A DNA stretch of 64,000 nt, taken from positions 32,001 through 96,000 of IMG/VR virus record IMGVR_UViG_3300044692_000034; one strand, given 5' to 3'. Below the pieces are notes generated by a model. That model was not told the DNA's origin. It was given only the letters and a program-made list of their open reading frames with translations, and made no database searches. This DNA is from a virus. The position numbers and the translations under genes were made by a program. Each line of letters starts with the position of its first letter. Within the stretch, counting starts at the first letter, position 1. This document shows, piece by piece, positions 4,815 to 32,168 of this stretch.

Positions 4815-5504
4815 CTAGCTCGCGGCCTTCTTCGCGGCGAGCCGGGCGTCGCGGCACGCCCGGCACTCGTCGCCGCGCTTGTCCCCGCCGATCGTCGGGA
4901 ACTTCGTGACGGGGTGCAGGCCGGCGCCGAGCTTGCAGTTCGCGCCGTTCTTGCACTCCTTCTGGCCGTCCTTGCTGACGGTGGAGGCGCGCGGCGCGCG
5001 GCGCCCGCTCGCGGTCGTCTCCGCGTTCGCGGCGGCCTCGCTCGCGGCCTTGGCGGCGTCGGCCTCGGCCGCCTTGCTCGCGCGGACGGCGGCGGCACGC
5101 CGGGCGGTTGCGGCACGCGGGTTCTCGTCGGCGTCCTCGCCGTGCTCCGCCATCCACGCGTCGCCGACGGCGATCATCTCCTCGACAGCCTTGGCCTGCT
5201 CCGGCTTGCCGGCGTCGCGGAGGTCCCCGAGGAGCCCCTGCCACTTCGAGATCGTCTTGGCGTTCTCGGCGGGCGAGTTGCCCTCCAGCTTCTTGAGCGC
5301 CTGCTCACGCGGCGTCGGCGGCGTGGACTTCTCGGCCTTCGGCGCGGCGGTGGCCGGCTTCTCCGAGCCCTTGCCGTTGATCTTCTCGGCCTCGGCCTCG
5401 GCGAGCTTCTTCGTGGTCGGCTGCCCCTTCGGCTGGCCGTTGACCTCGACCTGGAACTTGCGGCCCTTCTTGACGACGACTGCCGTCTCCGTGCTCGTGC
5501 TCAC
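4815..5504 (-). CDS. Lys/Ala-rich histone-like/nucleoid-type protein with C-terminal Cys4 zinc finger
   Basis: K/A-rich; ECKNGANC...ECRAC; GTG start with AAGGGAG SD and its own promoter. Confidence 0.6.
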   Translation of the reverse strand: MSTSTETAVVVKKGRKFQVEVNGQPKGQPTTKKLAEAEAEKINGKGSEKPATAAPKAEKSTPPTPREQALKKLEGNSPAENAKTISKWQGLLGDLRDAGKPEQAKAVEEMIAVGDAWMAEHGEDADENPRAATARRAAAVRASKAAEADAAKAASEAAANAETTASGRRAPRASTVSKDGQKECKNGANCKLGAGLHPVTKFPTIGGDKRGDECRACRDARLAAKKAAS

Positions 5505-5552
5505 GGTGTGACTCCCTTTGTGGGTAGCGGGTGGTGGGCGGTACTTGAAGTG

Positions 5553-5580
5553 AATGTACAGCACTCACCAGGTATTGCAA
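5553..5580 (-). promoter_or_regulatory. promoter TTGCAA-N16-TACATT
   Basis: Read directly; the same 16-nt spacer class recurs at 29268, 31962 and 43741. Confidence 0.65.
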
Positions 5581-5590
5581 CCTTCTTCCA

Positions 5591-5854
5591 TCAAACCTGT
5601 GGGCAACCGTTCGGGTGCACACGCTTGTACGTCAACTGCATCTCCTCCAGCACCAGCGACCTTGCCACCGACTCCGGCATCGCAGCGTCAGCCGGCATTG
5701 AGACGCGGAAGATCGGATTACCTGGTCGGCCCGTGTTCGTCTCCGCGATCCAGCAGCCCTCAAACCCTCCTATCGGACCGCCCTGGAACCCGAGCCACCG
5801 CATCGAGAAATCCGGCCACGCCGGTATGTCAGCTGTCACCATGCTCGACAGCAT
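5591..5854 (-). CDS. hypothetical protein
   Basis: 87-aa ORF directly after tRNA-Tyr. Confidence 0.45.
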   Translation of the reverse strand: MLSSMVTADIPAWPDFSMRWLGFQGGPIGGFEGCWIAETNTGRPGNPIFRVSMPADAAMPESVARSLVLEEMQLTYKRVHPNGCPQV

Positions 5855-5858
5855 AAGG

Positions 5859-5944
5859 TGCGCGGAGTAGGAGTCGAACCTACGCAGTCAGAGACGGCGG
5901 CTTTACAGGCCGTTGGGCTCAAAACCACATGCCCAGGTCCGCGC
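5859..5944 (-). tRNA. tRNA-Tyr(GTA)
   Basis: Acceptor GCGCGGA/TCCGCGC+A, anticodon loop CTGTAAA, long variable arm, T arm GTAGG-TTCGACT-CCTAC; atypical D region. Confidence 0.85.
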
Positions 5945-5954
5945 ACAAACAAAG

Positions 5955-6036
5955 CGGAGGGCGCGGGAGTCGAACCCGGAGCTGGTTAGGCTCGCACGAT
6001 TAGCAATCGCGCTGCGGCACCGGACGCTCACCCTCC
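5955..6036 (-). tRNA. tRNA-Ser(GCT)
   Basis: Acceptor GGAGGGT/GCCCTCC+G, loop TTGCTAA, variable arm GAGC/GCTC, T loop TTCGACT. Confidence 0.85.
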
Positions 6037-6055
6037 AAAGGAGGAGTGGGGTATC

Positions 6056-6560
6056 GCCGGTGACTACCGTGCTCCCGAAGAACGGTGCGAACGCGGTCGA
6101 ACAAGCTACGGTCTGAGCGGAGCTTGATCGAACGAATCGGCTTGCGCCGCAGAAGGTGCGGGTCGAGCGGCACGGCCGGGCAGTGTAGCCGAGGAGAGCG
6201 GGCGGCCGGGAGTGCACATCCCTGCTGGCCGCCCTCCTCTCTCTCTGTGGGTCGGTCTCCCGGCGGTCCGTGTCGGGAGACGGTGCACTTACCTCACACT
6301 GCGAAGTTTACGGGGCTCGCGCCCCCGATAGCTTGTCGACGACGCGAGCCCTGATCCTGCGAAGCACCATCTCAGCCGACTTATGTCCGGATGCCTGGCC
6401 TGGCAGTTCAGGGGTTCGAATCCCTTGCCGGAGTGCCCGAGTTCACCGAGACCCCTGGCGCTCAGTCACGTGTCGCGACATCTTGCTAACGAGGAGGCAG
6501 GGCTACTGCTCTTGCAGTCGGGGCCACTGGTGGTGCTTGGCAGGCAAGGTAGCCGCCAGC
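6056..6560 (+). ncRNA. candidate large structured RNA (or ssDNA) element of unknown family
   Basis: About 500 nt without a credible ORF, made of consecutive hairpins (6137-6166, 6194-6241, 6255-6281, 6313-6351), a long-range stem 6356-6369/6531-6544 and a T-arm-like AGGGG-TTCGAAT-CCCTT (6410-6426); wobbles are mostly G-T on +. Confidence 0.45.
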
Positions 6561-6588
6561 GGCCCAGCATGCAACTTGAACCGTTCGG

Positions 6589-7521
6589 CTAGTTGGTGAC
6601 GTGCGGCAGCGCATTGATCGCCGCGAGGGCGTCGGCCACGTAGATCGTGGCGCCCTCGGCCGGCGGCGTCGGGTCCGGGGGGGCCGGCGGGTCCGGGTCC
6701 GGGGGCGGCGTCGGAGTCGGCGGAGCGGGCGGGTTCGGGTCGGGCTGCCCGCCGAGCTGTTCGACGTCGTCGTTGAGCTGTTCGGCGTCGAAGCCGTTGA
6801 CGCTCAGGCCGTTCTTGAGCATGTCGTACGAGAGGACGCCGTACCCCTCGTCCATGTACTTCTTGATCCAGGACGGCGCGACCTTCTGGAGCTGCCCCCA
6901 CGTGACCACGAGGAACATGTCCTCGGCGACGAGATAGCCGACGACGATGACATCGTGGCCGCCTTCGATATGCGCGCCCTTGACGACGGTCCACGGCTCA
7001 CCGGCGTTGAACTGGTTCATCGCGGAGTCGGGGAACTCGACACCGATCGACGCCGCGCCGAACAGGTAGATCGCCATCTTGAGGTTCGTGACGTCGCCTG
7101 GGGTGATGGAGACGTACGCGCCGATCTTGTGGACCGAGCCGTCGGTGGCGAGGTGCATGCCCGTCTTGCGCCGGTAGTTCAGGGCGTCGAGCATGACGGT
7201 GCCCTGGTCCGTGTTCGGCTTCTTCGGGTTGAAGCCGGTGATGGCGGTGTAGAGCGCGAGCGCGTCCTTGTCCGTCACCGTCACGGGCGTGCCCGCCTCG
7301 GCGTTCCACAGCATCGTGCCGTGCCCCGCGTCCGCCTCGACGCAGTCGCCGTACTCGTCGTTGCCGAGCATGCCCCACCCGTCCGCCGGGAACAGGTCGT
7401 AGTTGCCGAGGTCCGTCGTCGGCAGCAGCGGCAGGTCGATGTCCTTCGTGTACCGCGTCATCTGGAGAGTGCGCGGGTCGTACTTGGCCGGGGCTTTGCC
7501 CAGCGGAAGAGGAGGACTCAT
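6589..7521 (-). CDS. papain-like (C1/C39-type) cysteine peptidase with Pro-rich linker, possibly cell-wall related
   Basis: MLGNDEYGDCV (Cys), GGHDVIVVGY (His), VVTWG; PDPNPPAPP repeats. Confidence 0.7.
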   Translation of the reverse strand: MSPPLPLGKAPAKYDPRTLQMTRYTKDIDLPLLPTTDLGNYDLFPADGWGMLGNDEYGDCVEADAGHGTMLWNAEAGTPVTVTDKDALALYTAITGFNPKKPNTDQGTVMLDALNYRRKTGMHLATDGSVHKIGAYVSITPGDVTNLKMAIYLFGAASIGVEFPDSAMNQFNAGEPWTVVKGAHIEGGHDVIVVGYLVAEDMFLVVTWGQLQKVAPSWIKKYMDEGYGVLSYDMLKNGLSVNGFDAEQLNDDVEQLGGQPDPNPPAPPTPTPPPDPDPPAPPDPTPPAEGATIYVADALAAINALPHVTN

Positions 7522-7557
7522 GCGCGGCATCGTAACCGCCGCCGCATGAGAGCCTTC

Positions 7558-10632: not shown

Positions 10633-11003
10633 GCTTCCTCTCCTGTGATCTGCCGCCACCATGCGACAGCTTGAACCCGGTTTCTGACCCCAATGCGCGG
10701 ATAGATCTGCGCAAGGTGATACTTCACTGCCTGCTCTGTCGTCGACAACCGCGCCGCTATCTCAGAGTTCGTGAACCCTTCGGCGAGCAGTGTCACGACC
10801 TCTGCTTCGGTGCGCGAGAGCCCGTGACTAACGTCACGGCGCGTCCCCTCGTCCGGCGTGAACTCGTACGCCTCCCGGTTGTAGACGACCGTCTCAACCG
10901 TCTGCGAGCCGCACTGATGGCAATACGGTGTCTCGCGCTGCAACCTGCAAGCCCGGCACACACGGATTTTGACGCCCTTTGGCCATAGCGGTACGCCGCT
11001 CAT
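10629..11003 (-). CDS. zinc-ribbon plus LuxR-type HTH transcriptional regulator
   Basis: CRAC...CHQC, then LSRTEAEVVTLLAEGFTNSEIAARL...VKYHLAQIY..IGVRNRVQAV. Confidence 0.85.
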   Translation of the reverse strand: MSGVPLWPKGVKIRVCRACRLQRETPYCHQCGSQTVETVVYNREAYEFTPDEGTRRDVSHGLSRTEAEVVTLLAEGFTNSEIAARLSTTEQAVKYHLAQIYPRIGVRNRVQAVAWWRQITGEEA

Positions 11004-12652
11004 CGGCCCACCACCGCAACCATCGGCACCTTCGGCTCGACCATTAGGTCGGCGCCGCCGACGCAGTTGGCCATACCAAGCGCCGTCAGGCCGTCAATGA
11101 CGCGCACCTCTTGCAAGGCCGCCGAACGGCTCGTCGCCGGCCGGTCGAACCTGTACTTGTCTCCCGGCAGCTTCCGTGCTATCGCATTCATGATGTGCGA
11201 GCGGAGAGCACCATGAATCTCCTCCCTCTCTCCTGTCGTTCCGTCAACGACGATGTCGGGAACGCGGCACCAGCGAAGCCACCTCTCCACCACATCGCTG
11301 TCAGGTGCCGCGCCGCCACGCAACGCCTGCATGAACGCGTCGTAGTCCTGCTGCGCGTTCGCGTTCCCTTGAGACCGATCAACGACGTCGCAGCCGATCT
11401 CTTCCTCAAGCCAAAGCATCGTGTCTTCGGCTTTGGTGGTGTCCATCACGACCATCTTGATGGGGTTGCGTGCGTGGATCGCCAAGAAGGCGTCACGCAC
11501 GTGCACAGGGCTGAGCGTTGTGCCATCGCGCGGCGGCTCAAGGATCCATGCCTGCCCGATGAGACGCAGCTTGCGGTGCGGGATCCACAGCGGCACGAGC
11601 GCCGTCGTGTCGAGGCTCCATGCGAAGTCGGCACCGACGATGATGGGCACACCCTTCGGCAGGATGCCTTCGGGGGCTTCTTCGAGTTGCCCCGCCTCCA
11701 GCACGGCGTCATCCCAGTCGGCTTCGTTGACGGCTGCGCTACTCGACCGCGCCGGGATGTTGCACGTGAGCCGCAGCCACCCCTCGCCGTAATCGAGCGT
11801 CGGGCTCGCGCGCTTGCGCCGTAGGCTCTCCTCCGTGATCTTGGCGAGCGGGTTCGCCTGCTTCACGATGGAGATGTCTTCGACGAGTCGGCGGTCTGGG
11901 ACGGCGTACTCGTGCAGGACGCTCGTGTCCGTCTCGTAGCGGCCGAAACACACGCCGCGCTTGGTGCTCTTCGTCGCGTGCTGCCGCAGCGAGTCGCGTG
12001 ACTTCTCAAAGTCGCTGCCCGGCTCACCGGACGTCGAGATCATGACGATGCTCGCGCCGCGCTTCTCACACTTGCCCTTCCACAGCCGATACAGGCCAAG
12101 GTCGCGGTGCCGGTGCCCCTCGTCGATGACCGGCAGTGTGGGGATGACGCCGTCTGCTGTGTCCTTGTCGGCGGCGTACACCTTGAGGCCCTGCCCGCCG
12201 TTGAACCGGTGCTTGATGAGCCGTGTGCCCTTGATCTCGTACGGGCCGTCGCACGAGCCGCGCTCACCTGGCAGAGCGTTCTCATCGGGTACGGTCGGGC
12301 CGTCCTTCATGTACAGCAGGCCCGGTGTGCGCTCAATGAACCCCTTCGCCTGTGTGAACAGGATCTCCGCCTGGTCGCGAGACGCGGCGCCGATAGGCAC
12401 CCACGGCTCGTTCGTGACCTCCAGGTGGTAGAGACAGATCTCCGCGATGAACGTTGTCTTGGAGTTGCCCTCCGGGACGATCAGCCAGCACTCTTCGTAG
12501 CCGTGAAGGACGTCTGCCATGAAGTCGAGCTGCCACCGCTCCGGCGGATGCCTCTTCCCGTCCTCGAAGACCAGCTCAGACGCCCAGCGCTTGAAGTGCG
12601 CGAGCGTGCCGGGCTGGCCCTGGACCTGCCCTGGCCACTCATGCCACGCCAT
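11000..12652 (-). CDS. terL: phage terminase large subunit
   Basis: ERWQ Q-motif, Walker A-like VPEGNSKTT, AASRDQA, Walker B VIDEGH, ISTSG coupling motif, KQANP, nuclease VGADFAWSLDTTAL and IDGLTAL. Confidence 0.9.
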   Translation of the reverse strand: MAWHEWPGQVQGQPGTLAHFKRWASELVFEDGKRHPPERWQLDFMADVLHGYEECWLIVPEGNSKTTFIAEICLYHLEVTNEPWVPIGAASRDQAEILFTQAKGFIERTPGLLYMKDGPTVPDENALPGERGSCDGPYEIKGTRLIKHRFNGGQGLKVYAADKDTADGVIPTLPVIDEGHRHRDLGLYRLWKGKCEKRGASIVMISTSGEPGSDFEKSRDSLRQHATKSTKRGVCFGRYETDTSVLHEYAVPDRRLVEDISIVKQANPLAKITEESLRRKRASPTLDYGEGWLRLTCNIPARSSSAAVNEADWDDAVLEAGQLEEAPEGILPKGVPIIVGADFAWSLDTTALVPLWIPHRKLRLIGQAWILEPPRDGTTLSPVHVRDAFLAIHARNPIKMVVMDTTKAEDTMLWLEEEIGCDVVDRSQGNANAQQDYDAFMQALRGGAAPDSDVVERWLRWCRVPDIVVDGTTGEREEIHGALRSHIMNAIARKLPGDKYRFDRPATSRSAALQEVRVIDGLTALGMANCVGGADLMVEPKVPMVAVVGR

Positions 12653-32012: not shown

Positions 32013-32168
32013 CCGAGGGCCGTGCGGGCATGTGACGTAGACGAGGGATCTTCGCTGGTGCTCTGCCTCTTGAGCTACCCGGTCCTTATGAGACGCGAGG
32101 CAGGATTCGAACCTGCAACCCCCAGCCTTGCCGGAGAACTCATCCACTTCGGCCCGCACGACCCTCGG
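32013..32168 (-). ncRNA. yrlA: YrlA-type Y RNA (tRNA mimic, ~156 nt)
   Basis: 17-bp terminal stem, GGGCCGA/CATGCCC Ro-binding helix; permuted tRNA module with T arm GCAGG-TTCGAAT-CCTGC, closed acceptor-like hairpin, D arm TAGCTCAAGAGGCAGAGC and GCTGG/CCAGC stem. Confidence 0.88.

Follow-up and report, generated by a model that had tools for sequence, protein, structure and literature searches.

In phage T4, the tRNA region specifies, besides the tRNAs, two small stable RNAs whose function is unknown. GOLLD and ROOL, two large tRNA-adjacent phage RNAs, are still without known function, and co-transcription has been suggested as a possible reason for their position near tRNAs (Weinberg et al., 2017, PMC5737381). 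YrlA and the bacterial Y RNAs contain a tRNA-like module (Chen et al., 2014, PMC4201824; Rfam RF02553).

Here we analyzed a window of 64,000 nucleotides, bases 32001-96000 of one 141,737-bp virus record of IMG/VR (65% GC, CheckV completeness of 96%), in which a gap of 552 nt at positions 6037-6588, hereafter the block, lies between tRNA-Ser(GCU) and a peptidase-like gene. The block shares with GOLLD and ROOL a size class of ~500-600 nt, a phage genome as its location and the adjacency to tRNAs, whereas it fails their covariance models and lacks a well-supported multi-junction fold, because the interior of the domain proposed for it folds like shuffled sequence. It also resembles the promoter-leader-tRNA operons of large phages (e.g., T4) in presenting a hairpin-rich non-coding stretch on the same strand as clustered tRNAs, with a host-type early promoter upstream, and the tRNAs would be processed out of the transcript. 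However, the leader considered here would be as long as ~500 nt for only two tRNAs. Taken as a whole, the block is a genuine non-coding, hairpin-rich spacer that contains a predicted minus-strand promoter and an orphan T-arm, and it probably represents an ordinary operon leader/terminator region.

Coding status and genomic setting of the block

The gene that borders the block at 6589-7530 on the minus strand encodes a papain-like peptidase of 313 aa (phrog_19005, with a weak PF00112 match). Downstream of the block, ARAGORN predicted tRNA-Ser(GCU) at 5954-6036 and, 9 nt after it, tRNA-Tyr(GUA) at 5857-5944, both on the minus strand; the whole 141,737-bp record holds three tRNA genes only. With Rfam, tRNA-Ser(GCU) scored 40.5 bits against a class II tRNA-Sec-like model and tRNA-Tyr(GUA) 34 bits, with the class II tRNA-Sec model as the best one, both values being under the gathering score. 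The genes around the block and both tRNAs are all encoded on the minus strand.

The initial annotation had described about 500 nt of this region as a non-coding element, and our analyses bear this out. Codon-position GC was flat in every ORF of 6037-6588, while flanking genes showed GC3 values of 0.86-0.95 and a GC2 of ~0.44, and a sliding three-phase GC plot was flat from ~5950 to 6550. Since the small ORFs of the block lack this coding signal as well as any PHROGs or Pfam match, they were rejected as genes, and 6037-6588 is truly non-coding. The gene map and the periodicity map of the whole genome are crude and noisy, and the rank of this gap among those of the genome is only imprecise.

Some neighboring features deserve mention in their own right. 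An ORF of 87 aa at 5591-5854 on the minus strand starts 2 nt past the 3' end of tRNA-Tyr; it shows a moderate coding signal (GC3 of 0.76), has no family match, and may be co-transcribed with the tRNAs. Further downstream, a promoter-like TTGCAA-N16-TACATT is present at 5549-5580 on the minus strand, in front of the gene whose end is at 4815, and an AAGGGAG ribosome-binding site at ~5519-5513 suggests that this gene starts near 5496 and not at 5564. The longest run without codon-position GC periodicity, of about 1.5 kb, is located near the left end of the genome (genome 1231-2760), and a number of the genome's most stable local hairpins lie at genome ~400-1900, overlapping that stretch.

Known RNA families, the T-arm and the search for relatives

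No Rfam family was matched at the gathering score anywhere in the 64-kb window, and when 5500-7000 and 6340-6560 (221 nt, lax filters) were scanned by E value, only the two tRNAs and noise came back. Thus, the block matches no known family, be it at the gathering score or at E values up to 10; GOLLD (RF01998) and ROOL (RF03087) had no match in 5500-7000 at E up to 10. A tmRNA or RNase P identity, which the initial annotation had listed among the outcomes that would speak against a new RNA, was not found either: RNase P RNA covariance models had no match in the block, the Rfam tmRNA families had none at E up to 10, and ARAGORN with default settings called no tmRNA. When ARAGORN was run with -ps80, it returned only a flagged permuted tmRNA call that runs into the peptidase gene and carries an atypical tag, ASGPACNLNRSASW. 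Position 70 of the putative acceptor strand reads as G, where the G3-U70 pair of a tmRNA would require U. The tmRNA and tRNA calls obtained with relaxed thresholds (-ps70/80) were rejected as spurious, intron-containing or low-score ones. Models of the mascRNA type gave nothing significant on the block.

On the + strand, the block contains a T-arm-like hairpin with the stem 6409-6414/6422-6427 and the loop TTCGAAT, in agreement with the embedded T-arm motif reported earlier. Its T-loop 11-mer, GGTTCGAATCC, occupies 6413-6423 and is correct on the + strand only, the closing pair being A-C on the minus strand. The pattern GGTTCGA[AC]TCC occurs in five copies in the 141.7-kb genome, the other four belonging to the three tRNAs and to a YrlA-like RNA. 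Because only ~0.16 copies would be expected by chance according to our own arithmetic, these five copies indicate that a real tRNA-type arm is present at 6413. The arm is part of a three-way junction at 6386-6432 on the + strand, formed with a 5-bp stem (6386-6390/6428-6432) and a 4-bp hairpin (6392-6405). Folding of 6384-6434 yielded this junction as the local minimum-energy structure (-19.7 kcal/mol), with a z-score of only -0.95 versus shuffles.

The remainder of a tRNA was not recovered around this arm. The block sequence offers neither a D-arm partner nor a GAGC partner for a D-stem; of a tRNA or tRNA pseudogene cloverleaf only the T-arm with its canonical loop is present, and no tRNA model matched on the + strand. 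Among 185,579 species genomes, none contained the 23-mer that spans the T-arm and the acceptor strand. This absence, together with the fact that neither an integrase nor a resolvase was found in the genome, makes an attP site or a host-tRNA fragment unlikely. Judged by its sequence, the T-arm of the + strand is most plausibly an orphan arm of tRNA-like type or the relic of a tRNA-type element.

In order to compare the block with YrlA and the Y RNAs, we looked for a permuted tRNA-like module (T-arm, capped acceptor stem and D-arm) and for a Ro60-binding terminal stem. The block and these RNAs both have a canonical T-loop: the 11-mer of the block is identical to that of the phage's own YrlA-like RNA, and Ro60 is encoded by the phage too. 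In contrast, the block has no D-arm mimic, no match to RF02553 and no copy of the Ro-binding stem motif of the phage (ACATGCCCG and CGGGCCG...ACATGCC are both absent from it), and its T-arm lies 26 kb away from the gene for Ro60 and belongs to the opposite strand. Paralogy with the Ro60-linked Y RNAs was also considered and rejected, because a shared 11-mer, CTCCGGCAAGG, and the T-loop similarity were at the level of chance in a local alignment test. The Y RNA locus itself gave a partial YrlA (RF02553) match at 32056-32124 on the minus strand (31 bits, E value of 3.6e-4, with a gathering score of 69), which covers the permuted tRNA-like module beside the Ro60 gene. There, three candidate Y RNAs in tandem (31840, 32033 and 32209) share the Ro-binding motif ACATGCCCG.

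Searches for relatives of the block were negative throughout. No copy was found elsewhere in its own genome, blastn against 50,697 phage records matched tRNA-Ser only, and nhmmer and blastn against 166 fetched loci gave no match. Patterns for tRNA-Ser and the T-arm had no matches in IMG/VR, patterns for the promoter architecture described below produced single random matches in unrelated, low-GC or non-phage DNA of IMG/VR and GTDB, and pattern searches of GTDB genomes found no homologs of the block. Relatives of the peptidase, among the matches listed, reached at most 53% identity in IMG/VR and at most 49% in the fetched JGI loci, and none of these fetched loci was syntenic with or similar to the block; the protein collection contained peptidase homologs of 55-62% identity (P0002-P0008). 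For terL, there was no relative in IMG/VR and no tblastn match (E <= 1e-5) in the 50,697 phage records. With no close relative found in IMG/VR or phage records, the large terminase (11000-12652, minus strand) marks the lineage as very isolated.

Secondary structure of the two strands

Folding of the whole block gave -248.1 kcal/mol on the + strand (z-score of -2.67 versus dinucleotide shuffles) and -233.2 kcal/mol on the minus strand (z-score of -3.47). The lower energy of the + strand, by 15 kcal/mol, is an effect of composition, as the shuffles of the two strands are 16 kcal/mol apart as well, and a + strand preference is absent from the folding z-scores. We also compared the block with the genome background, made of 284 same-size windows whose energy was regressed on G, C and U content. 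After this adjustment, z-scores were -1.64 on the + strand (rank 16) and -1.49 on the minus strand (rank 25), which places the block among the top 6-9% of same-size windows in a genome of 65% GC. When the regression was done on GC only, the + fold had a z-score of -2.0, and 4 out of 142 windows were equally good. The predicted minus-strand RNA, 6539-6037, folded with a z-score of -1.98. Consequently, the previous description of a highly structured element of ~500 nt holds to the extent that both strands fold better than their shuffles, the + strand having no advantage, but it is overstated given the rank of the block within its own genome. Such a modest global structure fits a leader/terminator zone better than an ornate RNA.

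At the local scale, the back-to-back hairpins of the initial annotation were corroborated by folding against shuffles, and five real hairpins, which we named B to F, are located within 6092-6356. Hairpin B (6094-6134) is a 14-bp inverted repeat, all Watson-Crick, that folds on both strands (segment 6092-6136, z-scores of -2.27 on + and -2.45 on minus). Hairpin C (6137-6166) has a 12-bp stem, 6137-6148/6155-6166, with four G-U pairs, and forms on the + strand only: the segment 6135-6168 gave -20.6 kcal/mol and a z-score of -5.65 on the + strand, compared to -10.3 kcal/mol and -1.40 on the minus strand. The strongest local structure is hairpin D, a 55-nt imperfect palindrome of ~21 bp at 6191-6245 that folds on both strands (6188-6248, -36.8 kcal/mol and z-score of -3.85 on +; -35.3 kcal/mol and -3.20 on minus). 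It belongs to the top 1% of 60-nt genome windows on both strands, a level of stability that ~80 other places of the genome reach on each strand, and is a candidate terminator or processing stem. Hairpin E (6255-6281) comprises 11 bp with two G-U pairs on the + strand and 9 bp on the minus strand (6250-6286, -21.0 kcal/mol and z-score of -2.64 on +; -14.2 kcal/mol and -1.85 on minus). Finally, hairpin F (6311-6353), with a GC-rich stem of 11-15 bp, is slightly better on the minus strand, where it lies in the top 1% of 60-nt windows (6308-6356, -29.5 kcal/mol and z-score of -4.55, compared to -26.3 kcal/mol and -4.28 on +); by analogy, it is a candidate terminator devoid of a U tract.

The initial annotation had also noted that non-Watson-Crick pairs were mostly G-T pairs of the + strand. 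The four in 6137-6166 are indeed present, and across the local hairpins 11 G-U pairs were counted on the + strand versus 3 on the minus strand; yet this excess comes mostly from hairpin C and has a p value of ~0.06 in our own binomial estimate. Helices B, D and F, as well as the long-range helix described below, are nearly entirely Watson-Crick and fold equally well on either strand, so that terminators, processing stems or DNA palindromes would account for them as well as an RNA fold. Three features read better on the + strand, namely hairpin C, the additional pairs of hairpin E and the T-arm, and the reading that we prefer does not account for them.

The long-range stem proposed to close a multibranch domain does exist as a complementarity: 6356-6369 and 6531-6544 pair at 13 of 14 positions, all Watson-Crick, and enclose 6356-6544. 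The ~190-nt domain itself did not withstand folding. While 6354-6546 had z-scores of -1.8 (+) and -1.3 (minus), the interior 6380-6528, with the closing helix removed, folded no better than shuffles (+0.5 on the + strand and +0.8 on the minus strand). In addition, the outer 5-6 nt of the long-range helix are upstream of the predicted minus-strand start. As this start falls inside the 5' arm, that part of the helix could form only in read-through transcripts. The pseudoknot suggested between 6211-6217 and 6283-6289 was discarded, since it relies on two copies of the palindrome GTGCAC, a site as common as chance predicts (48 observed in the genome versus 47.9 expected).

Predicted promoter and possible roles of the block

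The promoter motif that we used was derived from the leaderless ATG-CCN-ACN genes of this phage and consists of GAACG, 7 nt, TTGC, 19 nt, a TAGTCT-like hexamer and 6-7 nt to the start. The strict pattern GAACG-N6-8-TTGC-N18-20-TANNNT, applied to both strands of the whole genome, had 8 matches, versus 0 in 20 Markov-random genomes. Seven of these 8 matches front leaderless ATGCC early genes, and the eighth is located at 6586-6546 on the minus strand. This newly recognised, predicted promoter of the phage's own early class, of sigma-70 type, is composed of GAACG (6586-6582), 7 nt, TTGC(AT) (6574-6569) and TACCTT (6551-6546); it starts 3 nt past the peptidase stop codon (6589-6591) and points into the block, with a predicted start at ~6538-6539. 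As in the early leaderless cassettes of the phage, GAACG-N7-TTGC-N19-TAnnnT is followed on the same strand, but the site at 6586-6546 is not succeeded by an ATG-CCN-ACN gene 6-7 nt past the -10. Instead, the -10 is followed by GCCTGCCAAGCACC, with no start codon or ORF behind it, and what lies ahead of the promoter is non-coding DNA and then the tRNAs. The -10 hexamer, TACCTT, also deviates from the family consensus TAGTCT and is that of tRNA-Met: TTGNNN-N16-18-TACCTT has two copies in the genome only, this one and another directly upstream of tRNA-Met.

A loose scan for TT[GC]NNN-N16-19-TANNN[TA] over both strands of 5500-6700 found six minus-strand sites and no + strand site. Among the former is a weaker promoter-like site in hairpin B (TTCGAT at 6132-6127, 18 nt, TAGCTT at 6108-6103, minus strand). 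A generic sigma-70 and terminator scan of 5200-7200 gave nothing on either strand. These results run against the earlier proposal of a + strand transcript diverging from the tRNAs, as the promoter match is on the minus strand and 5500-6700 holds none on the + strand; the co-transcription view of GOLLD and ROOL (PMC5737381) likewise points to the tRNA strand.

With about as much confidence as doubt, we regard the block as a boundary, namely the leader and terminator zone of a minus-strand unit co-transcribed with the tRNAs, and not as a divergent large RNA. In this model, a phage early-class promoter would be used by host RNA polymerase 3 nt past the stop codon with which the terL-to-peptidase operon ends, and minus-strand transcription would start at ~6538. 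The transcript would cross a weakly structured stretch of 180 nt and then the GC-rich hairpins F, E and D, which, devoid of U tracts, would probably be partial terminators or processing/stability stems, acting on the transcript of this promoter as well as on read-through from the upstream operon. Transcription would go on into tRNA-Ser and tRNA-Tyr, the weaker site in hairpin B may reinforce it, and RNase P cutting at the 5' end of tRNA-Ser would free the leader. The hairpins at the ends of the phage's early cassettes are GC-rich and lack U tracts, like F and D. Since no intrinsic terminator (GC-rich hairpin plus U tract) was found in a consensus scan of 5200-7200, we infer a terminator role for the hairpins of the block by analogy with those of the cassette ends. 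Several observations speak against the leader reading: ~500 nt is long for a leader, the tRNA-Met promoter being ~11 nt upstream of its tRNA; the -10 TACCTT is not that of the promoter family consensus; the long-range helix has the predicted start within its 5' arm, so that 5-6 of its pairs could not form in this transcript; hairpin C (z-score of -5.65) forms on the + strand only, with hairpin E better on that strand too; and the T-loop 11-mer is correct on the + strand only.

The same promoter could instead serve a discrete, stable minus-strand ncRNA, either of ~235 nt (~6539-6305) and ending at hairpin F, or consisting of the whole ~500-nt leader, which RNase P would free and which would act in trans, as suspected for the tRNA-adjacent GOLLD and ROOL. 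A promoter followed by no ORF and by a strong GC-rich hairpin is the typical layout of a small-RNA gene, similar promoters serve the Y-RNA-like genes of this phage, a compact phage genome retains ~550 nt of non-coding DNA here, and the tRNA-adjacent context is common to GOLLD and ROOL. We consider such an RNA unlikely, though not strikingly so, given that the segment from the start to hairpin F folds no better than shuffles, that the z-score of the whole transcript is only -1.98, and that neither an Rfam match, even with lax filters, nor a homolog among the searched phage records, IMG/VR, GTDB and the 166 loci was obtained. Another view, that of a largely functionless spacer in which decayed tRNA-type genes or recombination scars coexist with DNA palindromes (protein-binding sites or bidirectional terminators) and any RNA made from it would be of no consequence, is distinctly improbable to us. 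It would accommodate the orphan T-arm without the rest of a tRNA, the strand-symmetric, all Watson-Crick helices B, D and F, as DNA palindromes would be, and a stability that is modest versus the genome background, with local hairpins just as strong at ~80 other sites of each strand. It has to face, however, an intact early-class promoter motif pointing into the block, the rarity of 550 nt of junk in phage genomes, and the fact that no tRNA remnant beyond one arm is detectable.

As hairpin C and the T-arm are better on the + strand, a new structured RNA of that strand, antisense to the tRNA leader and carrying a T-arm module that might work with the Ro60/Y-RNA or tRNA-repair genes of the phage, is kept at a low probability; we give it only a slight chance. 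In its favor are the T-loop 11-mer, otherwise confined to tRNAs and the YrlA-like RNA, the three-way junction as a local minimum-energy fold, the + strand hairpin C with its four G-U pairs, the 11 G-U pairs of the local hairpins against 3, and the GC-only regression (z-score of -2.0, 4 of 142 windows as good). Nevertheless, no promoter-like site faces this way in 5500-6700, the + strand advantage vanishes after base-composition control, the T-arm has no D-arm partner and its junction a z-score of -0.95, the tRNA, tmRNA, YrlA and mascRNA-type models all stayed below significance, ACATGCCCG is absent from the block, and the Y-RNA locus resembles the block no more than chance would predict. Very improbable indeed is a structure of single-stranded DNA, such as the single-strand origin proposed previously or a replication or packaging site. 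Several inverted repeats do occur in a non-coding block ~4.5 kb from terL, but the single-stranded DNA folds are symmetric and modest (z-scores of -2.34 and -2.29), iteron-type direct repeats, integrase and resolvase were not found, and no extremum of the cumulative GC skew falls near genome 38 kb (minimum at 102.8 kb, maximum at 7.7 kb), for which reason a replication origin at the block was rejected. To our knowledge, a 142-kb tailed dsDNA phage has no need for a single-strand origin.

If the preferred leader/terminator reading is true, the block is an ordinary regulatory or leader region whose value is one of annotation: the early-promoter family would extend to a stable-RNA operon, and the block would mark where the terL-peptidase operon gives way to the early region. 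Its importance would be larger should the leader turn out to be a stable RNA that acts in trans, or the orphan T-arm to have a function. There is a small probability that this isolated actinophage lineage makes a new, stable and structured RNA from the block, be it the minus-strand version in a GOLLD/ROOL-like context or the + strand version, whose T-arm module would interact with tRNA-handling enzymes or with Ro60/RNA-repair genes. The same phage carries Ro60/Y-RNA and RNA-repair-type genes, and a link of the block to RNA functions of this kind is speculation.

Three further observations concern the promoter motif, the tRNAs and the genome as a whole. A GAACG-N7-TTGC match is located at 6130-6145 on the + strand, overlapping hairpin C, with no TAnnnT -10 at the right distance; in the whole genome this half-motif has 13 matches, 4 of them on the + strand, versus ~1 expected by chance. 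Cumulative GC skew falls near-monotonically from ~7.7 kb to ~102.8 kb of the genome, close to tRNA-Met, and is flat thereafter, so its minimum at ~102.8 kb may mark a switch point of replication or transcription. The promoter-like TTGTGG-N17-TACCTT of tRNA-Met is found at genome 102276-102304 on the minus strand (~70276-70304 in window numbering, past the end of the window) and ends ~11 nt before the tRNA, and CTCCTCC is present just upstream of the mature 5' end in both tRNA-Met and tRNA-Ser.
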